Assembly (NCBI GenBank): GCA_036493895.1 | Contig: DASXOZ010000070.1 | Coordinates: 38,868 to 102,867 of the forward strand | Length of the DNA: 64,000 nt | Source of the DNA: Candidatus Binatia bacterium | GTDB lineage: Bacteria > Desulfobacterota > Binatia > UBA1149 > CAITLU01 | Direction: 5' to 3' | Shown here: positions 3,202 to 51,534 of the stretch, one piece after another | Position numbering within the stretch: the first letter of the stretch is position 1 | Layout: each line of letters starts with the position of its first letter | Notes under the pieces: model-generated | What the model was told of the DNA's origin: nothing | The model's database searches: none | What the model saw: the letters and a program-made list of their open reading frames with translations, nothing else | Translations under genes and position numbers: made by a program

Positions 3202-3225
3202 TTTCTTTCCTCTCCGTGCCGCGCT

Positions 3226-32306: not shown

Positions 32307-32921
32307 GTGAACCCGAGGGCGCGGCGCATCGTCGACACCGCGATCGACCTTGCCGAAAAAGGCGGTTTCGAAGCCGTGCGCCTCCGCGACGTGGCTGCCG
32401 AGGCCGACGTCGCGCTCGGCACCCTCTATCGCTACTTCCGCAGCAAGGAAGACATGCTGATCGCCGCGCTCACCTCCGAAGTCGAAGGCCTCGAGGCGCG
32501 CATCCAGGCCAGGCCGATGGTCGGAGACACACCTCTGGCGCGCGTCGACGCGTTCTTTCGCGTCGCGACCAAGGGGCTGATGCGGCGCCCCCGCCTCGCT
32601 CGCGCGATCCTTCGCGCAGCGGCCTCCGGCGACCACGAACTCGCGGAAAAAGTGGCCGCGTTCCATTCGCGCATGAGCGCGATGATCCTGGCGGCTATGC
32701 ATGCCGAGCCCGTCGCCGTGCCCGCGGGCAACGGCGCACATCCGCCACGTCTTGCCGCAAGCGAAGACGAGCTGTCCGTGGCGATCCTGCTGCAGCACAT
32801 GTGGTTCTCGTGCCTGATCGGCTGGGCCGGCGGGCTGATGAGCCAGAACGAAGTGATCGAACGAATGGGCACGGCCACCTCCTTGTTGACGCGCGCTGCG
32901 CAAAGCAACGGAGCCCGCTGA
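32307..32921 (+). CDS. kstR: TetR-family repressor, KstR ortholog
   Basis: The HTH region is near-identical in pattern to M. tuberculosis KstR (RIVDTAIDLAEKGGFEAVRLRDVAAEADVALGTLYRYFRSKEDMLIAAL). Confidence 0.8.
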   Translation: MNPRARRIVDTAIDLAEKGGFEAVRLRDVAAEADVALGTLYRYFRSKEDMLIAALTSEVEGLEARIQARPMVGDTPLARVDAFFRVATKGLMRRPRLARAILRAAASGDHELAEKVAAFHSRMSAMILAAMHAEPVAVPAGNGAHPPRLAASEDELSVAILLQHMWFSCLIGWAGGLMSQNEVIERMGTATSLLTRAAQSNGAR

Positions 32922-33000: not shown

Positions 33001-33963
33001 ATGAACACGTCCACCCGCTACCCGATGACGCCCTATCCGAACGGCTGGTTCCAGGTGGCCTACAGCGACGAGCTGGAAACCGGCAAGGCCGAGCCCCTGC
33101 ACTACTTCGGGCGCGATTACGTGCTGTACCGCGGCGAAGACGGTGCGGCGCGCGTGTTCGACGCGTTCTGTCCTCACCTCGGTGCCCACCTCGGCTACGG
33201 CGGCAAGGTCGACGGCAACAACATCCAGTGCCCGTTCCACGGCTGGCATTACGACGGCAGCGGAAAGTGTTTCGAGATACCGTACGGAAAGCGCATTCCG
33301 CCGTCCGCAAAGCTTCGCGCGCACCCCGTCGCCGAGAAGAACGGGCTGGTGATGCTGTGGCATCACGCCGGCGGAAAAGCTCCCGACTGGGAAGTTCCCG
33401 TCGTGCCGCAGTACGGCCTCGACGGCTGGACCCCGTACGTCAAGCGTCGCTGGAAGATCCGCACGCACAACCAGGACATGGCCGAGAACTCGGTGGACCA
33501 GGCCCACTTCCGTTACGTCCACGGCACCCTGACGGTTCCGCAGAGCCAGGCGACGACCGACGGTCCGTGCCTGCACGTGCTGTCGCAGATGAAGATGGGC
33601 ACGCCGGCAGGCGAGATCGACGGCAGCATCGAGTCGAAGTCCTGGGGCTTCGGTTTCGGGCAGGTGACGTTCCGCGGCATCGTCGAGACGTCGCTCGTCA
33701 CGTCGGTGACGCCGATCGACGGAGAGTACGTCGACGTGCGCTTTTCGTTCAGCGTCAAGAGCCTCGGCGACGAAAGGACGACGCGCGGGGTCGGCAAGGC
33801 GCTGATCGCCGACATCGACAAGCAGATGCGCGAAGACATCCCGATCTGGGAGAACAAGGCGTTCCTGGAAAGGCCGGTGCTGTGCGACGGCGACGGCCCG
33901 ATCGGCGTCTTCCGCACCTGGTGCCATCAGTTCTACAGCGAGGCGACCCCAGCCGCCGCGTAA
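33001..33963 (+). CDS. Rieske [2Fe-2S] non-heme-iron oxygenase, KshA-like class IA
   Basis: Rieske site CPHLGAHL..CPFHGW plus a mononuclear-iron catalytic domain. It is adjacent to kstR. Confidence 0.75.
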   Translation: MNTSTRYPMTPYPNGWFQVAYSDELETGKAEPLHYFGRDYVLYRGEDGAARVFDAFCPHLGAHLGYGGKVDGNNIQCPFHGWHYDGSGKCFEIPYGKRIPPSAKLRAHPVAEKNGLVMLWHHAGGKAPDWEVPVVPQYGLDGWTPYVKRRWKIRTHNQDMAENSVDQAHFRYVHGTLTVPQSQATTDGPCLHVLSQMKMGTPAGEIDGSIESKSWGFGFGQVTFRGIVETSLVTSVTPIDGEYVDVRFSFSVKSLGDERTTRGVGKALIADIDKQMREDIPIWENKAFLERPVLCDGDGPIGVFRTWCHQFYSEATPAAA

Positions 33964-34113: not shown

Positions 34114-36636
34114 ATGACCATGAACGAGAGCCTGACGAAGGACGCTGCCGGCGCCGACAGCGGAGCTTCGGGGCTCGAGGTCGCGGGATGGGGACCCGAG
34201 CCCCACGCCGGCGTGCAGGTCTCGCTGCTGCTGACCTCGGCGGCGCTGCTGATCCTCGAAATCTCGCTGACGCGCTTCTTCTCCTACACGATCTGGTACC
34301 ACCTGGCGTACCTGACGATCAGCATGGCGCTGCTCGGCTTCGGCTCCTCCGGGGCGATCCTCGCGGCCTTTCCGAATCTGCTCGCGCGCCACGGGCAGCG
34401 GCTGCTGGTCGGTGCGCTGCTGGCAGCGTCGGTGTTCATCGTCGCGGGCATCTCGTTCCTGGCGCAATTCCCGATCGAGACGCAGAACCTTTTTCTCAAG
34501 CCGTGGCAGTTCTCGTTCAGCCTGTTCTGTTACTACGGGATCGTCTCGACGCCGTTCGTTCTTGCGGGCTTCGCGGTGGGAGCGCCGTTTTCGGCGTGGC
34601 CGTCGCGGATGGGACGTCTGTACTTCTGCGACCTGGCGGGCGCAGCGATCGGCTGCGCTTGCGTGACGCCGCTGATCTCGCTCGTCGGCGTTCCCGGCCT
34701 CATTCTCTCTTCGTCGGCCCTGCTGCTGATGTCGGCGGCGGCGCTGCTGTGGAGCGGCGGCAGTCGCCGCCGCGGCGCATGGCTGGCTGCGACCGCGTGC
34801 GTGGTGCTGGCCTGCTCGGGGACTCTCGGTGAGAGGCTGCCGATCACCATCGCATCATCGAAGAACCTCGGCCCCGTCGATACCTCCGCCGACACCACCC
34901 ACCAGGACAGCGAGCATTTTCATCGCTGGACGCCGATCAGCCGCGTCGATGCCTGGGGCTGGAACCAGCCGTCCACCGGTTCGTTCTGGACCGGTATCGG
35001 GCTCAGCCAGTCGTGGACCGGAGTGTTGCCGGAAGTCGCGCGGCTGACTTACGACGGGTCGAACGGTTCCGACATCTTTTCCGGACGAGGAGACCTGGCT
35101 CGCAACTTCGAGATGCTCGACCATCACATTCTCACGGCGCCGTACGTCCTGCTGCATGCGCCGGACGTGCTGGTGATCGGAGTCGGCGGAGGCATCGACA
35201 TCTTCAATGCCCTCGAGCATCACGCTCATCACGTGACCGGCGCCGAGCTGCAGCCGGTTACCGTCGACCTGCTCGAGAACCGCCTGCGCGATTTCACCGG
35301 CGGCATCTATCATCGCGACGACGTCACGCTGGTCGCGAGCGAGGGCCGCCACTTCGTCCACAAGAGCGACCAGCGCTTCGATCTGGTGCAGATCACCGCC
35401 GTGGACACGTTTGCGGCCCAGGCAGCCGGGGCCTACGTGCTCGCGGAGAGCTACCTCTACACCGTCGAAGCGATGCAGGACTACCTCGCGCACCTGTCTC
35501 CCGACGGCATGGTCTCGACGGTCATCGGGGATTTCGTCACTCCCGGACAGGCGCCGCCGCTGGTTACGCGCCTGGCGATGCTCGGGCGCCGGGCGCTCGA
35601 GCGCAACGGCGTAGCCGATCCCGCCGGCCACATCGTGGTCGCGGTTGCATCGGTCGCGGGGCACGGCAGCCAGAACGAGATCGTGCTCGTCAGGAAGTCT
35701 CCGTTCCAGGCGAGTGACATCGCGGCGTTGCAGAAGTTCCTCGACGCGAACGGATTCACGATGCTTTACGACCCAGGGAGCCGGAGCGGCCCCCTGGCGG
35801 CGCTGCTTGCCGGCAATGAGACCGAGCGCGCCGCAGCGCTCGAATCGTCCATTTTCAACGTCGAAGCGTCGACCGACGAGAACCCGTTCTTCTACAATGT
35901 CGGCAAGTGGGCGAACCTGTCGCCGGACCACACGATCTTCTACATCATGCCGGGATCGTTCGTCGGCCAGGTGGTCCTGATCCTGATGGTCGTGCAATCG
36001 ACGCTGATCGGAGTCGTGCTGGTGCTCGGTCCGCTGCTGCTAGGAGCGCGGGAAGGCCTGCCGGCCTCGGGGGCGTGGGCGTACCTTGCCTATTTCCTCG
36101 CGCTCGGGATCGGCTTCATGTTCGTCGAGATTTCCTTCGTGCAGAAGTTCGTCCTGTTCCTCGGCTCTCCGATGTACGCGCTGTCGGTCACGATCTTCTC
36201 GCTGCTGCTGTTCTCCGCGTGCGGTAGCCTTGCGTCGACTTCCTGGGCGTCGCGGCCGCGCGCGGCGCTGCGCCGGATCGCGCCGCTTGCCGCGATCCTC
36301 ATCGTCGCCTACGCGCTCGGCCTGGCCCGTGTTTTCGATTCCGCGCTGCAGCTGGACATCGGGTGGCGCATCGCGATCTCGATCGCCGTGCAGGCGCCGA
36401 TCGGGCTGGTGCTCGGGACGTTCATGCCGCTCGGGATCGCGACGATCGCGCGCGAGCACGCCCGCCTGGTGCCGTGGGCCTGGGGCGTCAACGGCGTCGG
36501 CTCGGTAGCGGGAACCACCCTTGCAGTGCTGATCGCGATGTCGGCCGGTTTTCGCACCGTGTCGTTCCTGGCGGCGGCGCTGTACCTCGTTGCGGCGACG
36601 ACGCTGCTGCGCGCGACCGCGACCGCGTCGCGATAA
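34114..36636 (+). CDS. Polytopic membrane protein with an embedded spermidine-synthase-like (aminopropyltransferase-fold) domain
   Basis: About 11 TM helices flank a SpeE-like domain (VLVIGVGGGIDI..DLVQITAVDTF). Confidence 0.7.
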   Translation: MTMNESLTKDAAGADSGASGLEVAGWGPEPHAGVQVSLLLTSAALLILEISLTRFFSYTIWYHLAYLTISMALLGFGSSGAILAAFPNLLARHGQRLLVGALLAASVFIVAGISFLAQFPIETQNLFLKPWQFSFSLFCYYGIVSTPFVLAGFAVGAPFSAWPSRMGRLYFCDLAGAAIGCACVTPLISLVGVPGLILSSSALLLMSAAALLWSGGSRRRGAWLAATACVVLACSGTLGERLPITIASSKNLGPVDTSADTTHQDSEHFHRWTPISRVDAWGWNQPSTGSFWTGIGLSQSWTGVLPEVARLTYDGSNGSDIFSGRGDLARNFEMLDHHILTAPYVLLHAPDVLVIGVGGGIDIFNALEHHAHHVTGAELQPVTVDLLENRLRDFTGGIYHRDDVTLVASEGRHFVHKSDQRFDLVQITAVDTFAAQAAGAYVLAESYLYTVEAMQDYLAHLSPDGMVSTVIGDFVTPGQAPPLVTRLAMLGRRALERNGVADPAGHIVVAVASVAGHGSQNEIVLVRKSPFQASDIAALQKFLDANGFTMLYDPGSRSGPLAALLAGNETERAAALESSIFNVEASTDENPFFYNVGKWANLSPDHTIFYIMPGSFVGQVVLILMVVQSTLIGVVLVLGPLLLGAREGLPASGAWAYLAYFLALGIGFMFVEISFVQKFVLFLGSPMYALSVTIFSLLLFSACGSLASTSWASRPRAALRRIAPLAAILIVAYALGLARVFDSALQLDIGWRIAISIAVQAPIGLVLGTFMPLGIATIAREHARLVPWAWGVNGVGSVAGTTLAVLIAMSAGFRTVSFLAAALYLVAATTLLRATATASR

Positions 36637-36639
36637 TCT

Positions 36640-38079
36640 TTACGACGGCGCCGCGGCGCTCGCCGCGGATCCCAGCGCTGCAGCGCGCAGCTCTTCGAAA
36701 GAGCGGCGCAGCGCATCGACGAACACGTCGAGATCCGGCACGAGGTCCCAGTCGGCCAGCACTCCCCAGTGCAGCACGCCGGCGTAGCTGAACAACGCGA
36801 CACCGAGCCCCTGGTTCCTCAGCAGGTTCACCATCGGATAGATCTCGCGCAGCGTCGCGTCGAGCAGGAACAGCTCGAGCTGCGGACCCGGCACGTTCGT
36901 CACGACGAGATTGAAAGGTCGCGAGCGCATCGAAAGCCGCGCCGCGTTGGCCAGAAGCCTCCACGTCGTCATGTCGCTGACGCTCGCGAGCACCTGAGCG
37001 CCGAGCGCCTGCTTGGACTCCTTGAGCCGGTGCGTCGTGATGCGCACGCGCTCCAGTCGCGAAACCGGATCGGCCTCGTCCACCGGAAGGTCCGTCATCC
37101 ACAGCGCGATGCGGTTTCCGAGGCTGCCGCGCTCGTCGGCGTGCCGCACGCTCACCGGAACGTTCGCGCGGATGCTGAGCTCGTCGGGATCCACTCCGCG
37201 TTGAAGGAGGAAGCGGCGCACGGCGCCGGCCACGGTCGCGAGCACGACGTCGTTGACGGTGCCGCCGAGCACGTTCTTGACTGCCTTGATCTCGGCAAGA
37301 TCCAGGCGCAGCCAGTCGAAGCGGCGATGGGGGCCGATCTCGCGGTTCCACGGAGTTCCCGAAGCCTGCCGGGCCGTGGACGAAAGCGTTTCGGCGATGC
37401 CTTCGACTCCCTCGACGACGTCGCGGGCCAGGGCCGCAGGGTCGCCGAGCCTGGAGCCGAGCGACATCAGCGCTCCTACCGGCTCGCTGACGCTGCGCCA
37501 GGCCTCCGCCAGCACCAGCGCAGGAGCGGTCGGCGCCGGACGCGGCACGAAACTCGGGCCCGGGTCGAAACTCTGCGACGCAAACGGGCTCAGCAGCACG
37601 GCCATCAGGTCGACGCCGGAGATGCCGTCGATCATGCAGTGATGGGTTTTCTGGACTACCGCGAAGCGAGTGCCGTCTTCGAGGCCCTCGACGACCCAGA
37701 ACTCCCACAGCGGCTTGGCCCGGTCGATTCGCTGCGACTGGATCCGTGCGGCCAGCAGCTTGAGCTGTTCCATCGAGCCCGGCCGCGGAAGGCTCGTGTG
37801 CCGCACGTGGTAAGCCAGGTTGAAGTGGTCGTCGTCGACCCACACCGGCAGGCGCCCGAACGGAACGTAAGCCAGGCGCTGGCGGTAGCGCGGAATCAGG
37901 TGCAGCCGCGATTCGACGTACGCACGCACGCGCTCGATGTCGATGCCACCGGACGCATCGGCCAGCGATCCCGCGTCGAACACGGAGGTGGCGGCGATGT
38001 GCATGTGCGCGCCCCCGTTCTCGAGCTCGAGGAACGTGTTGTCGGACGCGGACAGGGGCTCGTAGGCAAAACCGCTCAT
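36640..38079 (-). CDS. Wax ester synthase / acyl-CoA:diacylglycerol acyltransferase (WS/DGAT)
   Basis: Catalytic HHCMIDGISG (HHxxxDG) motif in a ~480-aa WS/DGAT protein. Confidence 0.85.
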   Translation of the reverse strand: MSGFAYEPLSASDNTFLELENGGAHMHIAATSVFDAGSLADASGGIDIERVRAYVESRLHLIPRYRQRLAYVPFGRLPVWVDDDHFNLAYHVRHTSLPRPGSMEQLKLLAARIQSQRIDRAKPLWEFWVVEGLEDGTRFAVVQKTHHCMIDGISGVDLMAVLLSPFASQSFDPGPSFVPRPAPTAPALVLAEAWRSVSEPVGALMSLGSRLGDPAALARDVVEGVEGIAETLSSTARQASGTPWNREIGPHRRFDWLRLDLAEIKAVKNVLGGTVNDVVLATVAGAVRRFLLQRGVDPDELSIRANVPVSVRHADERGSLGNRIALWMTDLPVDEADPVSRLERVRITTHRLKESKQALGAQVLASVSDMTTWRLLANAARLSMRSRPFNLVVTNVPGPQLELFLLDATLREIYPMVNLLRNQGLGVALFSYAGVLHWGVLADWDLVPDLDVFVDALRRSFEELRAAALGSAASAAAPS

Positions 38080-38091
38080 CGTCTCCTCCGC

Positions 38092-40536
38092 TTACGGAGC
38101 CGCTTCCGTATCGCCGCGCCCGAGAAGGCCGGTGCGCCGGCCGGCGGCAAGCACGTCGATGGCATCGACGCGGCGGAGCGCACGATGGATCTCGCGCGAG
38201 AACTCGCGCCGGCGTGCCACCAGCTCCTCGCCGTCGCTGCCTTCGAGCAGGCGCCGGTTGGCCGCCAGGCGAAGCGTGTTCTGGAACAGCACTTTCGAGA
38301 CCGATTCGGCGCGCGTCACGCGGCGCTGGAGCTGGTACTGGCGCCCGAGCGCGAGGCAGCCGGTGACGAATCGGGCCTCCTCGACTTTGGCGCCGGCGGG
38401 CAGCCGCGCGAGCTGGTCGCCGGCAACGCGGTACGCCTCGAGGAACGGCCTCAGCACGCGATGCGAGTTGAACGGCTTGATCGCCAGCAGCAAGCCCTCG
38501 ATCTCCTTTCCTCCGGCGCGGATCCGCTCTTCCCACGCCGGCTCGTGCAGCGCCATCTCGGTGCGCAGCTCGTCGCGGAACGTCGCGCGGTCCGAGAAGA
38601 AGAACTCGAACTTGAGCAGGTCGCGCAGCGCGAGCGCTTCGTTCCAGAACGCCTCGAGACGGTCTCCGTCGGCTTCCATCGCCGCGACCATTGCGACTTC
38701 GGCGATCGAGCCGGTGACGAAGAAATGGATGACGGTGTTGCGGTAGTACGCTGCCGTCAGGAATTCCTCGGGCCGGATCGCGTAGACGGCCTCGGGCCCT
38801 TCGGTGAACACCGAGACGACGCCGTTCTCGACGAGGTGATCGAGCACGCGCTGCACTTCGGACGGCACGCGAAGGTTGACTTCCTCGGTCACCGGAAGAT
38901 TTCGCCGCTGCACGTAGGTGATCAGGTTCGCCAGCGCCGCGGCCGTCTCGTCGGCCGTCACCGCGCGGTCGCCGACCCCGAGAAGCGCCAGCGTGACCAG
39001 GGAGATCGGCGTGATCGGCGTCGCGTTGTTGATGCGCACGCTCAGCTCGAACGCGAGCTTCTGCAGCGGCAGGCCGCCCTCTTCCGGATCGCCGCCCACG
39101 GCGGGCGCCGCCTGCTCGCCGTAGAATTCGCGAAGCGAGACCGGCTCGCCGAAACGGATGTGGATGTCGCCGTAGCGTCGACTCAGGCGGCGGACCACCT
39201 TGAGGAACCACGAGAAGCTCTCTTTTTCCTTTCCTCCACCCTTCTGCTCGGCCACGTACTCGCCGACGTCCTGGATCTGGTCGTAGGCGATCGACACCGG
39301 CAGCAGCACGACGTCCTCGCTCTTTCCGCGTTGCCACGCATCGACGACGTAGGCCAGCAGACCCAAGCGCGGCGGAAGCAGCTTGCCGGAGCGCGACCGG
39401 CCGCCCTCGAGGTACCATTCGAGCGTGAAACGCTTCTCGATGAGGTAGTCGATGTAGTGGTGCAGGACGAACTTGTAGGTCGGATTGTCCTTGAACGTGC
39501 GGCGAATGAAGAACACCCCGGCGCGCCGCATCAGCGGGCCGACCGGGAAGAAGTTCATGTTGATGCCGCCGGCCGTGTGGTTGGGCGGATGGCCGTTCTC
39601 GTGCAGCGCGTACTGCAGCACCAGATGGTCGAGATTCGACTTGTGCGACGGCAGGAACACCACCGGGTAGCGCTGCGCGATGGCGTAGATGCGCTCGAGC
39701 CGCTCGCGGTCGTAGTGGATGTTCTCGCCGTAGCCGCGCCGGTACAGAAGGCGGATCATCCACGCGACGACGTCGATGACGAACGGATCGTGCGTGGCGG
39801 CGATCTCCGCGAGGTAGCGCGCGGCATCCTCGGTGACTTTCGCTTCGGGCTTTCCGAGCTCGCGGGCCAGGCGGGCGATGCCGCCGCGAAACGCGGGCCG
39901 CGACAGGATGTCCTGGGCGACCAGGCGCGGGACCTTGTAGCGCGCCCCGCGAAGGCGACGTTCGCTGCGCTCCAGCGCCAGCGTCGCGCGGCGCACGACG
40001 AACTCGGCCAGCCCCGTCGTTTCGGTCACGTCCTGGCCTCCGCTCTCTCGCCACTTCTCGCGCAGCTCCGAAAGATGCGCAGGCTCGCCGGCAACGATCC
40101 TCGCGCGTTCCGGGTGCCGGGCCGCGGTCCAGCGCTGGCGCAGGGGCCCGGGATCGCGCGGATCGGTCATCGTGACGATGTCGAGCGCGCTCAGGTGGCG
40201 CAGGCCTTCACCGAACTGCGAGAACCACACGACGCGCAGCGGCGCCATCAGCGGATCGCCGCCGGCGGCGATCGCCGACTCCAGGCGCGCCAGCTCTCCG
40301 GTTTTCCGTCGCGAGCGGCGCCGCCGCGACGGAGGAATCGCAACGATCTCGACCGACGATTCGGGCGTTGCCTCCGGGCGGGTGCGCGCGATCCAGCGCT
40401 CGAGCATCTTTCGCTCGAAATTGCTGCAGGCATCGAGCAGGAAGACGACGCGGCCGCCGGTAGCCGGCCAGGCCGGCTCGGCGGCGGCAGCCGGCGGAGC
40501 GGCCGCTTCCCCGATCGTGGTGGAGGACGTCGTCAC
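38092..40536 (-). CDS. Second PlsB-type glycerol-3-phosphate acyltransferase paralog
   Basis: GPAT blocks PSHKSNLDHLVLQY, FFIRRTF and YLEGGRSRSGK. GTG start with an AAAGG RBS. Confidence 0.8.
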   Translation of the reverse strand: MTTSSTTIGEAAAPPAAAAEPAWPATGGRVVFLLDACSNFERKMLERWIARTRPEATPESSVEIVAIPPSRRRRSRRKTGELARLESAIAAGGDPLMAPLRVVWFSQFGEGLRHLSALDIVTMTDPRDPGPLRQRWTAARHPERARIVAGEPAHLSELREKWRESGGQDVTETTGLAEFVVRRATLALERSERRLRGARYKVPRLVAQDILSRPAFRGGIARLARELGKPEAKVTEDAARYLAEIAATHDPFVIDVVAWMIRLLYRRGYGENIHYDRERLERIYAIAQRYPVVFLPSHKSNLDHLVLQYALHENGHPPNHTAGGINMNFFPVGPLMRRAGVFFIRRTFKDNPTYKFVLHHYIDYLIEKRFTLEWYLEGGRSRSGKLLPPRLGLLAYVVDAWQRGKSEDVVLLPVSIAYDQIQDVGEYVAEQKGGGKEKESFSWFLKVVRRLSRRYGDIHIRFGEPVSLREFYGEQAAPAVGGDPEEGGLPLQKLAFELSVRINNATPITPISLVTLALLGVGDRAVTADETAAALANLITYVQRRNLPVTEEVNLRVPSEVQRVLDHLVENGVVSVFTEGPEAVYAIRPEEFLTAAYYRNTVIHFFVTGSIAEVAMVAAMEADGDRLEAFWNEALALRDLLKFEFFFSDRATFRDELRTEMALHEPAWEERIRAGGKEIEGLLLAIKPFNSHRVLRPFLEAYRVAGDQLARLPAGAKVEEARFVTGCLALGRQYQLQRRVTRAESVSKVLFQNTLRLAANRRLLEGSDGEELVARRREFSREIHRALRRVDAIDVLAAGRRTGLLGRGDTEAAP

Positions 40537-40621
40537 GGCCCGCCTTTCTAGAGCAGCCGGCGGGGGCAACGCAACGCGACCTGCCCGCGGCTCGCGTGGA
40601 TGATCCCGCGCGCCGCAGGTT

Positions 40622-42082
40622 GTGCTATGGTTCGCCGCCCCGATGTTGAACCGCGGCATCCTTACCCGGGAGATCGAGAAAGGCAGCGCCGGACCCCAGA
40701 TCGGCGCCTTCTTCGATCTCGACCGGACCCTCATCGCCGGATTCTCGGCCTCCGCGTTCGTGCGCGAATGGCTGACCAGCGGCCGTGCCGCCCCGGCCGA
40801 GATCGCGGCCGCCGCGTCGGCGGCCGCGGCGTTCCAGCTCGGCCAGAAAAATTTCTCCGCGTTCGTCTCCGAGAGCCTCGCGATGGTCCGGGGCCTCACC
40901 GAAAAAGAATGGTCGGACATCGGCGAGAAGCTTTTCGGTGCGTCGATCGCCGCGAGCATTTTTCCGGAATCGCGCGCGCTGGTGGACGCGCACCGCTCCC
41001 GCGGCCACACGCTCGCGGTCATCTCGTCGGCCACGCGCGCGCAGGTCACGCCTGTCGCTCGCGAGCTCGGCATCGAGCACGTGTTCTGCACGGAGCTCGA
41101 AGTGAAGGAAGGAAAGCTCACGGGACAAGTGTTGCGACCCGCGTGCTACGGCCCGGGCAAGGCCGACGCGGCCACGCGATTTGCGGGCGAGCGCGAGATC
41201 GATCTTTCCCAGAGCTATTTCTACACCGACAGCGACGAAGACCTTCCTCTGCTGCTGATCGTCGGCAAGCCGCGGCCGATCAACCCGTCGCGGCGCCTGC
41301 AGTCGATTGCAGCAAAGCGAATCTGGCCCGTGCGAAGCTTCTCGAGCCGCGGCCTGCCGAGCGTGACCGACCTCGTGCGCACTTCGCTGTCGCTCGGCAG
41401 CATGCTGCCGTCGTTCCTGCTCGGGCTTCCGGCAGCGATCCTCGACCGCGACTACCGCCAGGCCGTCAATCTCGCGGCCACGACGTGGGGAGAGCTCGGC
41501 ACCGCGCTGGCCGGCGTGCACGTGACGGTGCAGGGCGAAGAACACCTGTGGTCGAAACGGCCGGCCGTCTTCATCTTCAATCATCAGAGCGGAATCGACC
41601 CGCTGCTCGTCTGCAAGCTGCTGCGCAGGGATTTCGTCGGCATCAGCAAGCAGGAGATCCGCAACGTGCCGGTGCTCGGGCAGCTGTTCGAGATGGCCGG
41701 CACGATCTTCGTCGACCGTTTCAACCACGTCGAGGCGGTCAAGGCGCTGGAGCCGGCGATCGAGGCTCTCGGCCGCGGGCTTTCGATCGCAATTGCGCCC
41801 GAAGGCACTCGCAGTCTCGGCCCCCGGCTGGGTCGCTTCAAGAAAGGTGCGTTCCGCATCGCGATGGCGGCCGGCGTCCCGGTCGTTCCGATCGTGATCC
41901 ACAACGCCGTCGATGCGCTGCCGAAACACGCCATCGTGATCCGTCCTGCCACCGTCGCGGTGACGGTGCTGCCGCCGGTGCCGACGAGCGACTGGACTGC
42001 CGGCGACCTCGACCGCAGAATCGAGGCGATCCGCGACGACTACCGGAAAGTGCTCGAACATGACGCCGGCGCGCTCGACTGA
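40622..42082 (+). CDS. Fusion of an HAD-IB phosphatase domain and a PlsC-type lysophospholipid acyltransferase domain
   Basis: N-terminal HAD motif I FFDLDRTLI. C-terminal LPLAT motifs FNHQSGIDPLL and PEGTRS. Confidence 0.8.
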   Translation: MLWFAAPMLNRGILTREIEKGSAGPQIGAFFDLDRTLIAGFSASAFVREWLTSGRAAPAEIAAAASAAAAFQLGQKNFSAFVSESLAMVRGLTEKEWSDIGEKLFGASIAASIFPESRALVDAHRSRGHTLAVISSATRAQVTPVARELGIEHVFCTELEVKEGKLTGQVLRPACYGPGKADAATRFAGEREIDLSQSYFYTDSDEDLPLLLIVGKPRPINPSRRLQSIAAKRIWPVRSFSSRGLPSVTDLVRTSLSLGSMLPSFLLGLPAAILDRDYRQAVNLAATTWGELGTALAGVHVTVQGEEHLWSKRPAVFIFNHQSGIDPLLVCKLLRRDFVGISKQEIRNVPVLGQLFEMAGTIFVDRFNHVEAVKALEPAIEALGRGLSIAIAPEGTRSLGPRLGRFKKGAFRIAMAAGVPVVPIVIHNAVDALPKHAIVIRPATVAVTVLPPVPTSDWTAGDLDRRIEAIRDDYRKVLEHDAGALD

Positions 42083-44197: not shown

Positions 44198-44560
44198 TCA
44201 AGGTTTTCGCGGCGCGTTTTCCACGGAATGCGAAGAGCCGCCCTTTTCCAGCTCCTCGACAACCCACGAGTAGGCAGCAACGGCCGGGGGGAGCCCGATC
44301 GTGCTCGCCGCAAGCGCGACGACGTGCCGGATCTCCGCTCCGCTGCAGCCGGCCGCGCGCGCCTTGCGCACGCTCGAATGCACCGGCCCCGGATGCCCGC
44401 TGCCGATCGCCACAGCGAGCTTGAGAAGGCGCTGCTCGCGCTCGCTGAACGGGCCGCTCTCTTCGGCTTCGCGCATCGCATCCCACGCCTGGCCGAGCTT
44501 GGGGAATTCGCGGACGAAAGCATCGTAGGTCTTCGGGGGCCTGGGACCGGATTCACTCAT
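44198..44560 (-). CDS. Carboxymuconolactone decarboxylase (AhpD-like) family protein
   Basis: CMD-domain sequence. Start at the internal Met (MSESGP). Confidence 0.65.
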   Translation of the reverse strand: MSESGPRPPKTYDAFVREFPKLGQAWDAMREAEESGPFSEREQRLLKLAVAIGSGHPGPVHSSVRKARAAGCSGAEIRHVVALAASTIGLPPAVAAYSWVVEELEKGGSSHSVENAPRKP

Positions 44561-44606
44561 CGCTTTCTCCCTCGTGCGGTCGGCGCGCCTGATTCGCACG
44601 CCCTCT

Positions 44607-45575
44607 TCAGCTCACGACGTTCTGGGGGCGGCCCGCGGCGAACGTGCGAACGTTGGCAACGGTGGTCGCCACCAGCCGCTTTCGCGCCGCCAGCGTGGCC
44701 CACGCGATGTGCGGAGTCACGGTGCAGCGCGGATGCAGCGTCAGCGGGTGACCCGCCGGCGGCGGCTCCTTCGACAGCACGTCCAGCGACGCATGCGCAG
44801 GCCTGCCGCGGTCGAGCGCCGCCACCAGCGCCGCCTCGTCGATGAGGTCGCCGCGTGCGGTGTTGATGAGAATGCTGCCGTCGCGCATCGTCGCCAGCAG
44901 CGATGCATCGACGAAGCGAAAATTCGTCGGCGTCAGCGGGCAATGCAGGCTGACGACGTCGGCGCGCGCGAAGATCTCCTCGACGCTCGCCCACGCAAAT
45001 CCCTCGTAGCTCGCGGCGCGGGTGCGACTCGGGCTGTATGCGAGCACGTTCATTCCGAACGCATGCGCGATCTCGCCCGCCCTCGCGCCGATGCGTCCAT
45101 GGCCGACGATGCCCATCGTCATGCCGGCGAGCTCGACCAGAGGCCGGGTCCAGAACGAGAAATCCTTGCACGCTGCCCACTGCTGCTCCCGAACTGCGCG
45201 CGCGTGCTCGGCAACCGCGCCGACCAGGTCGACAAGCAGCGCGAACACGTGCTGGGCCACCGAGTCGGCAGAGTAGCCGGGCACGTTGCAAACCGTCACA
45301 TCGTGGGCACGCGCTGCATCGAGGTCGACGACGTTGACGCCGGTCGCGAGCACGCTGACGAGGCGAAGCCCCGGGAGCGCCGCGAAAGCCTCGGCATCGA
45401 GCACCGTCTTGTTCGTCAGCACGACGTCGGCGCCACGCGCCCTCTCGATCACGAGGGACGGCGACGTGCGCGCGTGAACCTCGAGCGCGCCGAGTCCGGC
45501 CAGCTCATCGAACGGATTGTCTCCAGGGTCGACGGTCGCGCCGTCGAGCACGACGATGCGGCCGAAGGCGGGCAT
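44607..45575 (-). CDS. D-isomer-specific 2-hydroxyacid dehydrogenase (NAD-binding)
   Basis: GIVGHGRIG Rossmann motif with a catalytic R..E..H arrangement. Confidence 0.8.
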   Translation of the reverse strand: MPAFGRIVVLDGATVDPGDNPFDELAGLGALEVHARTSPSLVIERARGADVVLTNKTVLDAEAFAALPGLRLVSVLATGVNVVDLDAARAHDVTVCNVPGYSADSVAQHVFALLVDLVGAVAEHARAVREQQWAACKDFSFWTRPLVELAGMTMGIVGHGRIGARAGEIAHAFGMNVLAYSPSRTRAASYEGFAWASVEEIFARADVVSLHCPLTPTNFRFVDASLLATMRDGSILINTARGDLIDEAALVAALDRGRPAHASLDVLSKEPPPAGHPLTLHPRCTVTPHIAWATLAARKRLVATTVANVRTFAAGRPQNVVS

Positions 45576-45776
45576 CCCCGGCTCGAGCGAATCCTTCTGG
45601 TTGGAAATACCCACGGCGCGCCCTTTTATGCGGCGAGCGCCGCGGCGCAACAGCAATCGCGGGGCACCTTTGCCGGCGGGGCTGCTTCGCCGGTGGGGCC
45701 GCTTCGCGCCGCTGCTTTTCCGGCGGCCCCGCTTCGCCGCGCCCGAGGGCGGCCGGCGTTTCGGCGCGGACCGGCG

Positions 45777-46460
45777 TCAGGGAACCGAGATCGACCCTTC
45801 GCCGGTCAGGTCGGCAAGCAGCTCAGCGTAAAGGCCGCGCTTGAGCACGCGGCAGGCGTCCCGGTTCTTGCCGGCAAGCGGCCTGAGCCTTTCGACTGCC
45901 GCGGGAAGAACTTCGGCCTCGGCGGCCACCTGGTCGACGATGCCAATGCGCAGGCAATCGTCGGCGCCGAGCCTGCCGCCCGTCAGGACCGTGTCACGGT
46001 AGGCGCGGACACCGATCTTCTCACGGATCAGCGTGCGCATCCCGAGCACCAGCGGCATGCCGAGGTCGAGCTCGGGAAGGCAGAAAAACCCGCGGTCGCT
46101 GCGCATGACGCGCCACTCGTGGGCAAGCGCCAGCATTGCGCCACCGGCAAAGGCATGACCGTTCATCGCGGCGCAGGTCGCGACCGGCAGCGCAATGATG
46201 CGCGCGAAGAGATGCAGCACCGTCGCGATGAACTGCATCGAGACCGAATGTTCCTGCTGGCTCAGCCAATCGAGGTCGAGGCCGTTCGAATAGAACTTTC
46301 CCTCGCCGACCGTGACGAGCGCCGCCGCGCCGCGGCTGTTCTCGACTTCGTCGAGGGCGCGGTTCATCGCCGCGATGAAGCCGGGGTTGAAGCGGTTCTC
46401 GCCGCTCGTCATCCGGAGGACGAAGACGTCGCCGTCGCGGCTCAGGTCGTATTCGGCCAT
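45777..46460 (-). CDS. Enoyl-CoA hydratase/isomerase (crotonase) family protein
   Basis: Crotonase fold. Start at the internal Met (MAEYDL). Confidence 0.7.
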   Translation of the reverse strand: MAEYDLSRDGDVFVLRMTSGENRFNPGFIAAMNRALDEVENSRGAAALVTVGEGKFYSNGLDLDWLSQQEHSVSMQFIATVLHLFARIIALPVATCAAMNGHAFAGGAMLALAHEWRVMRSDRGFFCLPELDLGMPLVLGMRTLIREKIGVRAYRDTVLTGGRLGADDCLRIGIVDQVAAEAEVLPAAVERLRPLAGKNRDACRVLKRGLYAELLADLTGEGSISVP

Positions 46461-46577
46461 GGTTGCCCTCCTGCGGTGCCGGCGAGCGCAAGCCCGCCTC
46501 CGTGCGATGCCGGGCGGATCGAAAGGTTGCGCAGGATCGTGCCGCACCGCAAGGCGCGGCGCGATCCTGCGCAGGAA

Positions 46578-47768
46578 TCAGGCTGCGCGCCGGTACATCG
46601 TGACGACGGCAGCGCCGCCGAGACCGAGGTTGTGCTGCAGCGCGACGTTCGCTCCGGTCACCTGGCGCTTGTCGGCCTGGCCGCGAAGCTGCCAGTTGAG
46701 CTCGGCGCACTGGGCGAGGCCGGTTGCTCCGAGGGGATGGCCCTTCGAGATCAGGCCGCCCGACGGATTGACCACCCACTTTCCGCCGTACGTGACGGCG
46801 CCCGTGTCGATCAGCTCTCCGCCCTTGCCGGGCTCGCACAGGCCGAGGCCCTCGTACGTGATCAGCTCGTTGCACGAGAAGCAGTCGTGCAGCTCGATCA
46901 CCTGCACGTCGTTCGGCGTCAGGCCCGACTGCGCGTAGACCTTCTCGGCGGCCTTCTTCGTCATGTCGGAGCCGACGAGCTTGATGCACGAGTGCTCGTC
47001 GAACGTGGACGGAAGATCGGTCGCCATCGCCATGCCGGCGATCTCGACGGCGGTCTTCTCGAGGCCGTGCTTCTTGACGAAGTCCTCGCTGGCGAGAATC
47101 GCCGCGCCCGCACCGTCGGAAGTCGGGCAGCACTGCAGCTTGGTCAGCGGCCCGTAGACAGTGGGCGACGCGAGGATGTCGGCGAGGGAGTACTCGTCGC
47201 GGAACTGCGAGTAAGGGTTGTTGACCGAGTGCTTGTGGTTCTTCTGGCCGATGCGCGCGAAGGACTCGGCGGTCGTGCCGTACTTCTCCATGTGCTCGAT
47301 GCCGGCATTGCCGAAGAACTGCGGCGCCCCGGGCGCGTTGGCGAAGCCGCGAAGCTGCACCATCTCGCCGAAGTGCTTGTCCATCGGGTTGGTGCGGTCC
47401 TGGAACTTCACGCCGAGGGAACCCTTCTCCATCTTCTCGAAGCCGAGCGCCATCGTGCAGTCGGCAAGGCCGCCCTCGATGAACTGCTTGGCCATGAACA
47501 GCGCCGTCGATCCCGTCGAGCAGTTGTTGTTGACGTTGTAGATGGGCACGCCGGTGATGCCGAGCTCGTAGATCGCGCGCTGTCCGGCAGTCGAATCGCC
47601 GTAGCAGTAACCGACGGCGACCTGCTCGATCTCGTCGAACGAGACGCCGGCGTCCTTCAGCGCGTTGGTGCCCGCTTCCCTGGCCATGTCGGGATAGTCC
47701 CAGGCCTTCGATCCGGGCTTCTCGAACTTGGTCATGCCGACGCCGACGACGAATACTTTCCTGCCCAT
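46578..47768 (-). CDS. SCP2/SCPx-type thiolase; the nucleophilic Cys is retained
   Basis: [13 protein letters not shown] and C-terminal [17 protein letters not shown] motifs. Start at Met 155 ([11 protein letters not shown]). Confidence 0.8.
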
Positions 47769-48150
47769 GGTTTCTCCCGCAGCCGCTGCTGCTGTAGCCG
47801 GTTTTTGCGCCCGCATCGCGCGGTGCACGATCTTGCAGTTATCCAATCGTGCGGGAAAAGCGAGCGCGGCCGGCGCCCTGGCGGCGACCAGGCAAGGCTC
47901 GGTCCCGGGCAGCGGCGGCAAGAGCCACCCAAGGCCCGGGATGCCGCTGCTTTCCCGCCGCCGGTGAGTCCGGAGCCACCCGGCCGCCGCCCCTGCCGCC
48001 GCCTTCCTACGCGGCTGTCGCCGCGTTGCCGGCTGCCGCCGGTCGGGCGGCACCCGGCGAGGCGCGCCCCGTGCTTTGCGCCGCAGCCTGCGTGCTGGTT
48101 GAATCCGCCGCCGCCAAGCCCCGCGACCCGACGCAGAAGGAGAAAGTTCC

Positions 48151-48648
48151 GTGGCCGAACAGATCGAGCTGACCGACGAAATGAAAGCCCAGATCGGCAA
48201 GCAGTCGCCGCCGTGGGACTTCGAAGTCACGACGACGAGCGTGCGGATGTTCGCGCGTGGCGTCGGCTACACCGACCCGGTGTACTACGACGTCGAAGCG
48301 GCCAGGCGCGCAGGCTACCGCAGCCTGCCGGCGCCGCCGACGTACCTCGGCACGGCAGTGTTCCTGCCCGGCCGCTGCAGCGACACGTTCAGCGGACCCA
48401 CCGAAGGAATCCCGTCGATCAACCACGGGTTGAAAGGCCTGCTCGACGGCGGCACCGAGACGGAATACTTCGATGCGATCTGCGCAGGCGACACGCTGGC
48501 CGCGCAGATCAAACTTGCCGACGTCAAGGTCGCTTCGAGCGCCGCGCTCGGCGGAAAGATGCTCGTCGTCACGGCCGTCACCACGTACACGAACAAGGCG
48601 ACCGGCAAGACGGCTGCCAGGCAGACCTCGCAGGTCATCTACTACTGA
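48151..48648 (+). CDS. MaoC-like/FAS1-like dehydratase N-terminal-type hotdog subunit (ChsH-like)
   Basis: GTG start with a GAAGGAGAAAG RBS. Hotdog fold without the hydratase motif. Confidence 0.65.
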
Positions 48649-48671
48649 ATTCGCACGAGGAGACGGACGCG

Positions 48672-49085
48672 ATGCTGAAATTCGACGAGATCAAGGAAGG
48701 CGACGCGATCCCCGAGCTTCGCAAGACCCCTACCCTGCAGCAGCTGGTCAAGTACTCGGCCGGCGGCGGGGACTTCAACCCGCTGCACCACGACTATTCG
48801 TTCCCGCAGGCCAAGCAGATCGGCTCGATCATCGTGCACGGGCGCTTCAAGTACGCCGCGCTCGGCGAGCTCGTCTCGAACTGGGTCGGTCATGCCGGGC
48901 GCATCGAGAAGCTGTCGTGCCAGTACCGCGGCATGGACCTGCCGGACAAGCCGTTCGTCTGCAAGGGCGTCGTGCGCAGGAAAACCAGCGAAAACGGCCG
49001 CAAGGCCGTCGAGCTCGACATCTGGGCCGAGAACGCCGAGGGCAAGAAGACGACTCCCGGATCGGCCGTCGTGGTGTTCCCCTAG
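48672..49085 (+). CDS. MaoC-like (R)-specific enoyl-CoA hydratase hotdog subunit (ChsH-like)
   Basis: Hydratase-2 motif GGGDFNPLHHD. Lies 23 nt after the preceding hotdog gene. Confidence 0.75.
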   Translation: MLKFDEIKEGDAIPELRKTPTLQQLVKYSAGGGDFNPLHHDYSFPQAKQIGSIIVHGRFKYAALGELVSNWVGHAGRIEKLSCQYRGMDLPDKPFVCKGVVRRKTSENGRKAVELDIWAENAEGKKTTPGSAVVVFP

Positions 49086-49200
49086 CAACGGCGCAGCCGT
49101 TGCGTCGGAGAGTTACGGCGCAGCCGTTGCGTCGGAGCGGTACGGCGCAGCCGTTGCGTCGGAGAGTTACGGCGCAGCCGTTGCGTCGGAAAGCCTGCGG
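49086..49200. repeat. 27-bp tandem repeat x4.3 in which each unit carries a short palindrome
   Basis: CGGCGCAGCCGTTGCGTCGGAGAGTTA repeated head to tail, each with ACGGC-gca-GCCGT. It sits between convergent gene ends. Confidence 0.85.
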
Positions 49201-49260
49201 CGCAGCCGGCGAAGAGCCTGACGCCCCTTGTGCCGCGGCGCGGCGCGGCGCGCGCGCAGT

Positions 49261-49845
49261 TCAGAGGCGCTCGAGGCGAAGAAGGTCGGCATCGCTGGCC
49301 AGTTCGGCAAGCAGCTGCGCCTTCCAGCGCTCGAATTCCGCACCGTCCCAGGCCCTGTGCTCGCCGCGCGAATAGGCGCAGGCGTTGCGATGGTATAGCC
49401 ATGCGTTCATGCGGTTGTCCCGCGTCGCATCGCGGCGCCTGATCACCTTGGCAGGAATTCCGGCAACGATGGAACCCGGCTCGAATACCGAGCCTTCGGT
49501 GGCGACTGCGCCTCCGGCGACGATGGACCCGGCGCCGAGCACGACGCCGTCCATCAGCACGGCGCCGATGCCGATCAGGCAGGCATCGCCGACGTGGGCG
49601 CCGTGAACGGTAGCGTGATGGGTGATCGAGCAGAAGTCGCCGATCGTCGTCGGATGGTCGTAACCGACGTGGATCATCGCGAAGTCCTGCAGGTTGGTGA
49701 GGCGGCCGATGCGGACTTTCTGCGTCTCGCAGCGAACGACGGCGTTGAGCCACACCGACGAGCCGACGCCAATGGCAACGTCGCCGAAGATCGAAGCGGT
49801 CGGCGACAGCAGGGCGCCGGGGAAGCGGGGATCGGGATTCATCAT
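49261..49845 (-). CDS. Gamma-class carbonic anhydrase / hexapeptide-repeat (LbH) protein
   Basis: Left-handed beta-helix repeats and the His triad pattern of PaaY/YrdA-like proteins. Confidence 0.75.
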   Translation of the reverse strand: MMNPDPRFPGALLSPTASIFGDVAIGVGSSVWLNAVVRCETQKVRIGRLTNLQDFAMIHVGYDHPTTIGDFCSITHHATVHGAHVGDACLIGIGAVLMDGVVLGAGSIVAGGAVATEGSVFEPGSIVAGIPAKVIRRRDATRDNRMNAWLYHRNACAYSRGEHRAWDGAEFERWKAQLLAELASDADLLRLERL

Positions 49846-50010
49846 CGCATCGGTCGGCACGCAGGTCGCGTCCTGGCGGCGCTGTGGGATGCCGCAGGAT
49901 CGCAGCGGTGGCAACAGCGGGCCTGCGCCGGCTCTGCGTGGCAGCGGCGAAGTCGCCGCAGCACGACGGAGGCTGCGCGCGGCCGCGCCGGCCAGTCCGG
50001 CCGCGCCGCG

Positions 50011-51534
50011 ATGCTGCCCCACGCGGCGGCGGTGACTGTTGCCGTCGTCATTTTCGCTCTCATCTACGATCCGTTCCATGCCGGCGCGCTCGTGTTTCTC
50101 GCGCTGGCGCCGATCACACTGGTGTTCTGCGACCCGCGGGTGCCTTGCCGTCTCGGCCAGGCCGCGCTCGGCGGTTTCACGTTCGGGCTGCTGGCCGCCA
50201 TGGCGATCGTCGGGCCGTGGATGTTCGCGGCCTCGGTGGATTACTTCGACCGCAGCAGCGCCTGGTCGATAGGTTTCACGCTCGCGATCAACGCCGGCTA
50301 CGTCGCGCTGTTCACAGCCCCCGCGTTCATGGCACTGCGCGTGCTGGCATCGGCGCCTCCCATGCTGCGCGTGATCGGCGCTGCCTCGACGTGGATCGCG
50401 TTCGAGGCGCTGCGCAGCGCGGATCCGTTCGGGAACTGCTGGGCTCTTCTCGGCCAGGGCTTCGCCAACCTGCCGCTGCTGCGCGAAGCCGCGGCCTTCG
50501 GAGGCGTTCCGCTGCTCGGATGGCTCGCGGCGCTGACCGGCTCCGCAATCGGAGTCGGGCTGCAGCCCGACGTCGGCGCCAGGGACGCGATGCGGTGCAC
50601 CGCCGTCGCTGTGCTCGCACCGCTTGCCGCCGTCGTTCTCGGAGTCGCTGCGCGGCACCAGGACCACGTGATCACGCCGCTGCAGCCGCTTCGCGTGGCG
50701 GTCGTGCAGCAGGAGATCGCCAGCCGCGACGTGTGGAATCCGGCTCGCCGCGTCGACAACTGGAACTCCTACCTGGAGACGACTGCCACGCTGAAGCCCG
50801 GCAGCGTCGACCTCGTCGTCTGGCCCGAGAGCGCGGCACCCTTCCTTCTGAATGCGGACCCGGTCGCGCGTGACAAGATGATCGAGCTCGCGACGACGCT
50901 CGGCGCAGCGATCATGCTCGGCGCGCCGCGAAGCGAGGACGTCGGTCAGGGACGCGCCTTGATGCACAACAGCGTCTACTTCTTCGCGCCGGGCGCGTCC
51001 GAGCCGCTGATCTACGACAAGCAGCGCCTGCTGCCGTTCATCGAAACGATGCCGGCGGCGACCGACGATCCCGACCAGTCGCCGTACGCGCCCGGCAGCT
51101 CCGAAAAGCTCTTCGACGTGCACGGATGGCAGATCGCGCCGCTACTGTGCTTCGAGGCCGTGTATCCGCAGTACGCGCGCCAGGCGGTCGCCGACGGCGC
51201 CCACCTGCTCGTCAATCTCTCCAACGACGCATGGTTCGACGGCGGCGCCGGTCCCGAGCAGCACTGGGCGATGAGCCTGATGCGCACCGTCGAGCTTCGC
51301 CGCCCGATGGTGCGAGCGTCCAACGGCGGCATCTCCGGCGCGATCGGCTTCGACGGCACCGCCATCGGCATCCCGATCCGGCGCACGCACGCGATGCGCA
51401 TCTACGAGATTCCGCCGCCTCCACGCACGATGACGGCGACGATCGCGTACGGCGAGTATGCGGGATGGGCGAGCGGCGTGCTGTCGCTTCTCTGCCTGCT
51501 GTTCGCACTGGCAAGGCTGCGCGCTCGCAGCTGA
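50011..51534 (+). CDS. lnt: Apolipoprotein N-acyltransferase
   Basis: N-terminal TM region plus a nitrilase-type CN-hydrolase domain (VVWPESAAPF..LLCFEAVYP). Start at Met 140 of the track ORF. Confidence 0.85.
   Translation: MLPHAAAVTVAVVIFALIYDPFHAGALVFLALAPITLVFCDPRVPCRLGQAALGGFTFGLLAAMAIVGPWMFAASVDYFDRSSAWSIGFTLAINAGYVALFTAPAFMALRVLASAPPMLRVIGAASTWIAFEALRSADPFGNCWALLGQGFANLPLLREAAAFGGVPLLGWLAALTGSAIGVGLQPDVGARDAMRCTAVAVLAPLAAVVLGVAARHQDHVITPLQPLRVAVVQQEIASRDVWNPARRVDNWNSYLETTATLKPGSVDLVVWPESAAPFLLNADPVARDKMIELATTLGAAIMLGAPRSEDVGQGRALMHNSVYFFAPGASEPLIYDKQRLLPFIETMPAATDDPDQSPYAPGSSEKLFDVHGWQIAPLLCFEAVYPQYARQAVADGAHLLVNLSNDAWFDGGAGPEQHWAMSLMRTVELRRPMVRASNGGISGAIGFDGTAIGIPIRRTHAMRIYEIPPPPRTMTATIAYGEYAGWASGVLSLLCLLFALARLRARS

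Follow-up and report, generated by a model that had tools for sequence, protein, structure and literature searches.

A divergent PlsB2, WS/DGAT and HAD-PlsC fusion gene trio in Candidatus Binatia and its relation to proposed triacylglycerol clusters of actinobacteria

Described clusters and the Binatia trio

We have analysed a 64,000-nt stretch of DNA from Candidatus Binatia bacterium (GenBank assembly GCA_036493895.1, contig DASXOZ010000070.1, positions 38,868 to 102,867 of the forward strand; hereafter, the window). It holds three neighbouring genes predicted to encode a PlsB2-type glycerol-3-phosphate (G3P)/lysophosphatidate (LPA) acyltransferase, a wax ester synthase/diacylglycerol acyltransferase (WS/DGAT) and a single polypeptide joining an HAD-IB phosphatase domain to a PlsC-type acyltransferase domain (hereafter, the fusion). 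The closest described systems are actinobacterial. In Mycobacterium tuberculosis, Rv2484c (tgs) adjoins Rv2483c, encoding an LPA-acyltransferase-like “bifunctional” PlsC, and Rv2482c (plsB2). M. leprae retains the set, as ML1244-ML1245 with plsB2 next to them, and earlier authors have suggested that the set may be a Kennedy-pathway triacylglycerol (TAG) cluster (PMC3503283, PMC10699116). In Rhodococcus jostii RHA1, atf9-plsB-plsC form one transcribed operon, which contains the sole plsB of the genome and whose PlsC is a fusion of 1-acylglycerol-3-phosphate acyltransferase (AGPAT) and HAD domains. Amara et al. (2016) proposed that the HAD half is an alternative phosphatidate phosphatase (PAP), which would gather the whole Kennedy pathway in one operon (PMC4850399). 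The PAP hypothesis was repeated in a 2023 metagenome study, where a PF12710 + PF01553 protein adjoined a WS/DGAT in Actinomycetota, Alpha- and Gammaproteobacteria (PMC10351704).

The three genes of the window and the two spacers between them are the following:

36640..38079, minus strand: WS/DGAT, 479 aa (TIGR02946, PF03007 + PF06974); same call in public assemblies
38080..38091, minus strand: spacer from the plsB2 stop codon to the WS/DGAT ATG, 12 nt, with a GGAGGAG Shine-Dalgarno sequence just before the ATG
38092..40536, minus strand: PlsB2-type G3P/LPA sn-1 acyltransferase, 814 aa (NF002886, PF01553 + PF19277); public gene call
40537..40642, no strand: divergent intergenic region between the plsB2-WS/DGAT pair and the fusion gene, 106 bp, from the gene calls
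40643..42082, plus strand: HAD-IB phosphatase + PlsC acyltransferase fusion, 479 aa; public gene call; AlphaFold2 model

The same three protein families stand side by side here and in the M. tuberculosis cluster, and the PlsB of the window scored above the PlsB2 equivalog cutoff. The Binatia trio differs from the mycobacterial one in phylum and in layout, its fusion gene being transcribed divergently from plsB2-WS/DGAT, whereas the three M. tuberculosis genes presumably all lie on one strand of the H37Rv map. The likeness of the fusion to Rv2483c is by literature description, and the nearest Mycobacteriales sequences compared were 39-40% identical to it. A WS/DGAT, a PlsB and an AGPAT-HAD fusion are likewise common to the window and RHA1; however, RHA1 has a single co-directional operon and one plsB, while the window has two divergent units and two PlsB paralogues. 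The trio thus shares the adjacency of the actinobacterial tgs/atf9-plsB-plsC(HAD) cluster and departs from its single co-directional operon. The clusters of the 2023 study also have the PF12710 + PF01553 fusion beside PF03007, with no PAP2 gene nearby and with the same PAP hypothesis attached; unlike the window, they generally contain an acyl-CoA synthetase and an additional AGPAT of the ordinary kind, Binatia was not reported among them and PlsB2 was not the emphasised partner (PMC10351704).

Based on this comparison, we favour, with moderate confidence, the view that the trio is the Binatia version of the mycobacterial/rhodococcal glycerolipid/TAG cluster and works by the five-step route proposed below. 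The three-gene arrangement and the idea of the HAD half as a PAP are already known, having been published for the homologous actinobacterial cluster. What is new here is the trio in Binatia, its divergent layout, and the demonstration that PlsB2 and the fusion are a conserved core to which the WS/DGAT is only patchily linked. The original prediction had counted G3P acyltransferase (GPAT), LPA acyltransferase, candidate phosphatase and diacylglycerol acyltransferase activities at this locus. Its gene identities and their logic stood; the phosphatase step, which it had itself labelled as inference, keeps that standing and had been proposed before.

The three predicted enzymes

The gene at 38092..40536 was assigned to the PlsB2 type, since its product scored well above the cutoff of the actinobacterial PlsB2 equivalog NF002886 (859 vs. 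721 bits; aa 29-798 aligned with positions 16-775 of the 787 in the model) and fell far below the cutoffs of the E. coli-type PlsB models (307 and 294 bits for NF003441 and TIGR03703, vs. 610 and 618). The acyltransferase motif HX4D was found in the expected domain, and the downstream blocks FFIRR and EGGRSR were intact. This bore out the earlier claim of a second PlsB-type GPAT at this position.

39628..39645, minus strand: HX4D motif of PlsB2, HKSNLD, aa 298-303, inside the PF01553 match (aa 287-416)

The neighbouring WS/DGAT matched TIGR02946 over its full length with 411 bits (cutoff 310), and both the catalytic PF03007 and the C-terminal PF06974 domains were recognised. It aligned end to end with the solved WS/DGAT of Marinobacter (6chj) and with Acinetobacter AtfA (7nxg), and carries an NVPGP motif at aa 395-399. 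The intact HHxxxDG motif and the 12-nt distance from plsB, as originally predicted, were both confirmed.

37624..37644, minus strand: HHxxxDG catalytic motif of the WS/DGAT, HHCMIDG, aa 146-152, aligned to HHSLVDG of 6chj

A scan found no terminator-like site between plsB2 and the WS/DGAT gene, terminator matches in the region being at chance level. We infer from this arrangement that the two genes are co-transcribed.

The WS/DGAT might instead make mainly wax esters from fatty alcohols, in which case the cluster would not be a dedicated TAG pathway. Enzymes of this family are generically bifunctional, with a preference that is not readable from sequence, and some Rhodococcus Atf paralogues are wax synthases only (PMC4850399). 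Moreover, alkane and alcohol oxidation have been reported to be encoded in Binatota genomes (PMC8262859). Against such a role, the WS/DGAT gene is translationally adjacent to a G3P acyltransferase gene, and no fatty acyl-CoA reductase turned up in the gene calls covering 30.6 to 52 kb of the window. We consider a mainly wax-ester cluster improbable.

The fusion gene most likely starts at ATG 40643 and not at GTG 40622, since this start is used in the public annotation of two independent assemblies and agrees with the alignment of homologues. The divergent spacer is therefore 106 bp and not 86 bp as first predicted; the single, divergently transcribed fusion polypeptide of that prediction was confirmed. 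Within the spacer, the segment TTGTAGAGCA..GGGGCAACGCAACGC is conserved between the window and the related loci L001, L004, L005 and L006, with GTGCTA after it, ~15 nt ahead of the ATG of the fusion gene; in the window, an insertion of ~33 nt lies between the two parts. This segment could be a shared promoter or operator of the divergent units. A promoter scan of the 40537..40642 spacer detected no sigma-70 consensus.

The fusion was 100% identical to a Candidatus Binatia bacterium protein (P0001), which is named “HAD-IB family hydrolase” at NCBI, and its Pfam domains are PF12710 (HAD) and PF01553. Its parts are arranged as follows:

40706..41296, plus strand: HAD-IB domain, aa 22-218 (TIGR01490), with motif I DLDRT at aa 25-29, S128, K173 and DSDED at aa 196-200
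41387..41443, plus strand: hydrophobic linker helix between the domains, aa 249-267, LSLGSMLPSFLLGLPAAIL, the highest Kyte-Doolittle window of the protein, within the modelled helices 241-289
41519..41899, plus strand: PlsC-type acyltransferase domain (PF01553, 109.6 bits), with HQSGID at aa 314-319 and EGTRS at aa 387-391

Both halves passed their family models. The HAD half, placed in subfamily IB of its superfamily (TIGR01488/TIGR01490), scored 163-166 bits against TIGR01490 (cutoff 98.3), with all four HAD motifs (DxDxT, S/T, K and DxxxD) present, and the PlsC half scored 110.8 bits against TIGR00530, the 1-acylglycerol-3-phosphate acyltransferase domain (cutoff 102.95). In the AlphaFold2 model (pLDDT 84, pTM 0.70), the HAD core is Rossmann-like and bears a helical cap; three helices at 241-289 lead on to a PlsC fold. 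In Foldseek searches of the PDB, the N-terminal half matched 3fvv (TM 0.81-0.84), a functionally uncharacterised Bordetella protein, as well as SerB/phosphoserine phosphatases, and the C-terminal half matched Thermotoga maritima PlsC (5kym, TM 0.77). The linker helix between them likely inserts in the membrane.

Residues D25, D27, T29, K173, D196 and D200 of the HAD domain and H314, D319 and E387-S391 of the PlsC domain were invariant in 40 homologues with 58-84% identity. The same residues were kept, and S128 was also conserved, throughout the full-length members of a set of 55 sequences that spans Binatia, Myxococcota, Actinomycetota and Gammaproteobacteria, with the exception of one actinobacterial clade that has N196/G197 and retains D200. 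Such invariance across phyla argues that both halves are under selection as enzymes, and on their sequences both look like working enzymes.

The trio region contains three real genes among numerous high-GC shadow open reading frames (ORFs). Three long ORFs, 44574..49085 (plus strand, 1503 aa), 36488..40054 (minus strand, 1188 aa) and 36769..40551 (plus strand, 1260 aa), were rejected as shadow frames overlapping called genes. The G+C content was 66-70% across the window, and neither GC content nor skew showed a compositional break around the trio. Together with the wide occurrence of the PlsB2/fusion pair in Binatia and Myxococcota, at 54-84% identity, this gave no sign of a recent horizontal transfer of the trio.

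Conservation and surroundings of the trio

We have scanned genomes with the fusion and obtained 69 related loci, from Binatia, Myxococcota/“Deltaproteobacteria”, Actinomycetota, a few Gammaproteobacteria and one Saprospiraceae metagenome-assembled genome. Forty-four of them were well flanked, having 3 kb or more on either side of the fusion gene. A PlsB2-type gene lay within 1 kb of the fusion gene in 30 of the 69 loci and in half of the well-flanked ones (22/44). The pair was found in several phyla and in three orientations, with the PlsB2 gene divergent from the fusion gene, after it or before it. Unsupervised clustering of the neighbouring ORFs of the 69 loci revealed no further recurrent partner, SDR, enoyl-CoA hydratase (ECH) and MFS genes being only sporadic.

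The exact layout of the window trio was retained in L001, L004, L005 and L074, whose WS/DGATs are 65-87% identical to that of the window (65% for L074). Such recurrence speaks against a chance arrangement. The flanking Rieske/KshA_C, TetR and holA genes were also retained in these relatives. In L074, a 94-aa NTP_transf_9 gene (3223..3507) is inserted in the divergent spacer between the fusion and PlsB2 genes.

A WS/DGAT gene was also within reach of the fusion gene in Panacagrimonas (L060). A tblastn search of a plasmid collection identified a further case on a plasmid of Mycobacterium paragordonae (L077; NZ_CP025547.1, 119905-133296), with a fusion 39.8% identical over 97% of the query, a WS/DGAT gene divergent from it and a PlsB-family gene after it. 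Hence, a replicon with a plasmid annotation can carry the gene set. The module comprises WS/DGAT, alpha/beta hydrolase and alcohol dehydrogenase genes and, divergently, genes for the HAD-PlsC fusion, a 635-aa PlsB-family protein, ECH and MaoC. The same search returned Nocardia farcinica, where PlsB2 is followed by the fusion (38.8% identity) with no WS/DGAT within 6 kb. The Aldersonia locus (L069) was discarded as a Mycobacteriales example of the fusion; it actually holds a short PlsC fragment and a 623-aa PlsB1-like gene.

The other PlsB paralogue of the window lies far from the trio:

4957..7608, minus strand: other PlsB paralogue, 883 aa (PlsB_N + Acyltransferase + GPAT_C)

Its best NCBIfam match was the E. 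coli-type PlsB, at 428 bits (cutoff 610), and its neighbours are greA, rimP, yqeY and pseudouridine synthase (rluD-like) genes. A separate PlsB is thus present, as predicted; its designation as the housekeeping, general-purpose GPAT is plausible from this context.

On the WS/DGAT side of the trio, an 838-aa ORF (34120..36636, plus strand) occupies the space between a Rieske/KshA_C oxygenase gene and the WS/DGAT gene, its stop codon being 3 nt from the WS/DGAT stop. It has no Pfam family, and its only recognisable similarity, a weak one, is to spermidine synthase at aa 336-472. In L001 and L074 the ORF is missing from this place and the Rieske gene directly adjoins the WS/DGAT gene. The Rieske/KshA_C gene (33001..33963, plus strand) and a TetR regulator gene (32307..32921, plus strand) are syntenic with the trio in L001, L004 and L074, with 71-90% identity; the oxygenase matched the 4-beta-methylsterol monooxygenase model weakly (86 bits, cutoff 600).

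Downstream of the fusion gene, a fatty-acid-metabolism block (44198..51500) comprises CMD, 2-hydroxyacid dehydrogenase, enoyl-CoA hydratase, thiolase and two hotdog dehydratase genes (FAS1_DH_region and MaoC), followed by the apolipoprotein N-acyltransferase gene lnt. ECH and MaoC genes also stand beside the fusion-PlsB pair of the M. paragordonae plasmid. Elsewhere in the window, a gene for an LPG_synthase_TM (PF03706) membrane protein (25368..26384, minus strand) adjoins a flavoprotein/DFP (PF02441 + PF04127) gene, with a polyprenyl synthase gene near; its surroundings are otherwise housekeeping (secDF, yajC, tgt, queA and nadA).

Proposed route and its meaning

In the route that we propose, PlsB2 would acylate the sn-1 position of G3P and possibly 2-acyl-LPA too, by homology to the biochemically characterised enzyme; purified M. 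smegmatis PlsB2 transfers acyl chains from acyl-CoA to sn-1 of both G3P and LPA (PMC10593935). The C-terminal PlsC domain of the fusion, again by homology, would acylate sn-2 to give phosphatidate, with the linker helix anchoring it at the cytoplasmic side of the membrane. Beside this anchor, the catalytically complete N-terminal HAD-IB domain may convert phosphatidate to diacylglycerol (DAG). The WS/DGAT, presumably co-transcribed with plsB2, would then add the third acyl chain to yield TAG, or esterify a fatty alcohol to a wax ester, as its homologues do. The two transcription units would share the 106-bp divergent control region.

The HAD step draws on four observations: the conserved fusion with intact catalytic residues, its pairing with PlsB2 across phyla, the repeated, independent linkage to WS/DGAT genes, and the precedent of the land-plant enzymes GPAT4/6/8, in which a phosphatase domain fused to a glycerolipid acyltransferase dephosphorylates the product of that same acyltransferase (PMC11127019). 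In actinomycetes, PAP2 enzymes supply DAG for TAG; yet an M. smegmatis double PAP2 knockout keeps TAG at the wild-type level in rich medium, so another PAP exists in this species (PMC8225852). In the window, no PAP2 domain (PF01569) was found among the called genes from ~7.4 to 52 kb, nor in the three trio proteins.

We have scanned the HAD half separately against Pfam and NCBIfam at E<=10. It stayed below the equivalog cutoffs of histidinol-phosphatase (NF052360, 125 bits, cutoff 280) and SerB (TIGR00338, 37 bits, cutoff 144). Like lipin/Pah1 (PAP1), it belongs to the DxDxT HAD superfamily, whose lipin members are Mg2+-dependent. It differs from lipins and from PAP2 enzymes (PgpB, Lpp-alpha/beta, MSMEG_0633/0634) in being a C1-capped IB domain, with neither an LNS2 or PAP2 match nor a lipin fold match. 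By sequence and fold the domain is of the phosphoserine-phosphatase-like IB type, neither lipin-like nor PAP2. It is probably a phosphatase, and phosphatidate is its candidate substrate. The predicted PAP role is consistent with the intact HAD-IB motifs, while the sequence or fold affinity to lipin-type or PAP2 enzymes that could have backed it was not found.

Several points weigh against this assignment and against a storage role of the cluster. The scan gave no match of the HAD half to lipin/LNS2, PgpC-type, PAP2 or plant GPAT HAD families, and no lipin fold was among the top 50 Foldseek PDB matches. The closest characterised HAD relatives, histidinol-phosphate phosphatases and SerB, act on small soluble substrates. 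In the literature searched, including that after 2023, we found no paper with an assay of the HAD-PlsC fusion, and the authors of the 2023 study described the function of the PF12710 + PF01553 protein as still to be elucidated (PMC10351704). A WS/DGAT gene lay within 8 kb of the fusion gene in only 5 of the 69 loci and was not linked to it in most fusion-bearing genomes; the more distant of these have a ~60%-identical WS/DGAT elsewhere, beside enoyl-CoA hydratase and thioesterase genes. Finally, the atf9-plsB-plsC transcript of RHA1 was most abundant under nitrogen excess and 5.4-fold lower under nitrogen limitation (PMC4850399). Since this homologous operon is repressed under TAG-accumulating conditions, the cluster may serve vegetative glycerolipid synthesis rather than storage. 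For the same reason, co-expression under storage-lipid conditions would be an unsafe test of its function.

The neighbour counts across the 69 loci indicated that the conserved unit is PlsB2 plus the fusion, the island of three genes being confined to a single Binatia subclade. The “Kennedy-pathway island” of the original prediction thus holds for the window and for L001, L004, L005 and L074, and does not extend to a wide conservation of all three genes. From its distribution, the WS/DGAT is best described as a later, patchy addition to this core, attached in one Binatia subclade.

PlsB2 and the fusion could form a general module for phosphatidate and membrane-phospholipid synthesis and remodelling. 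The HAD domain would then have a substrate other than phosphatidate, such as a soluble phosphoester or a different lipid phosphate, e.g. phosphatidylglycerophosphate, or be regulatory, and the WS/DGAT would have come to lie nearby through local rearrangement, with no channelling. The position of PlsB2 as sole recurrent neighbour, the scarcity of WS/DGAT linkage, the N. farcinica pair and the soluble substrates of the nearest HAD relatives are all compatible with such a module, as is the growth-associated maximum of the Rhodococcus operon with its single plsB (PMC4850399). Nevertheless, WS/DGAT linkage has arisen in separate lineages and layouts, namely the Binatia subclade, L019, L060, the M. 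paragordonae plasmid and, from the literature, M. tuberculosis/Rhodococcus. In addition, the window has a second PlsB, with a PlsB_N domain, in a housekeeping context, and the HAD domain falls under the SerB and histidinol-phosphatase cutoffs. We regard the general module as unlikely.

The fusion could also work in the manner of plant GPAT4/6/8, with its acyltransferase half acylating G3P and its HAD half converting LPA to monoacylglycerol, which the WS/DGAT and/or PlsB2 would then acylate to DAG and TAG. In plant GPATs the phosphatase domain is N-terminal, as in the fusion of the window, and WS/DGATs such as AtfA have monoacylglycerol acyltransferase activity. Relatives are also named “WS/DGAT/MGAT family” by JGI. 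The plant and bacterial proteins both combine a phosphatase domain with a PF01553-type (PlsC-superfamily) acyltransferase domain, the plant phosphatase acting on LPA made by its own acyltransferase (PMC11127019), and in mycobacteria PlsM, of the PlsC family, acylates sn-2 of G3P, and 2-acyl-LPA is accepted by PlsB2 (PMC10593935). However, the acyltransferase half of the fusion passes TIGR00530 and its best structure match is an LPA acyltransferase, whereas GPAT4/6/8 place the acyl chain on sn-2 of G3P, and the monoacylglycerol that they release is destined for cutin and suberin. Furthermore, no plant-type HAD family was matched, the two HAD halves having no detectable family relationship at E<=10. 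The parallel is one of mechanism by analogy, not of family membership, and we give the plant-like route little credence.

Returning to the five-step route, the cluster probably makes storage fat. A bolder form of this reading, which we advance only tentatively, is that the fusion is a true bifunctional LPA acyltransferase/Mg2+-dependent PAP that evolved within the HAD superfamily from its phosphoserine-phosphatase branch, separately from the lipins, and channels phosphatidate to DAG. With PlsB2 it would make up an ancient two-gene module present in at least five phyla, and it might be the source of the residual PAP activity of PAP2-null mycobacteria.

In the literature searched, we found no paper linking Binatia/Binatota with TAG or wax esters, and the published genome survey of this uncultured, globally distributed group is silent on storage lipids. 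The present analysis extends the mycobacterial and rhodococcal TAG gene set to it, and the trio suggests neutral-lipid storage in soil and sediment Binatia. The tight, orientation-independent pairing of PlsB2 and the fusion across phyla strengthens the eight-year-old hypothesis of a bacterial HAD-type phosphatidate phosphatase fused to the enzyme that precedes it in the pathway; being compact, the Binatia trio would lend itself well to work on this hypothesis in E. coli.

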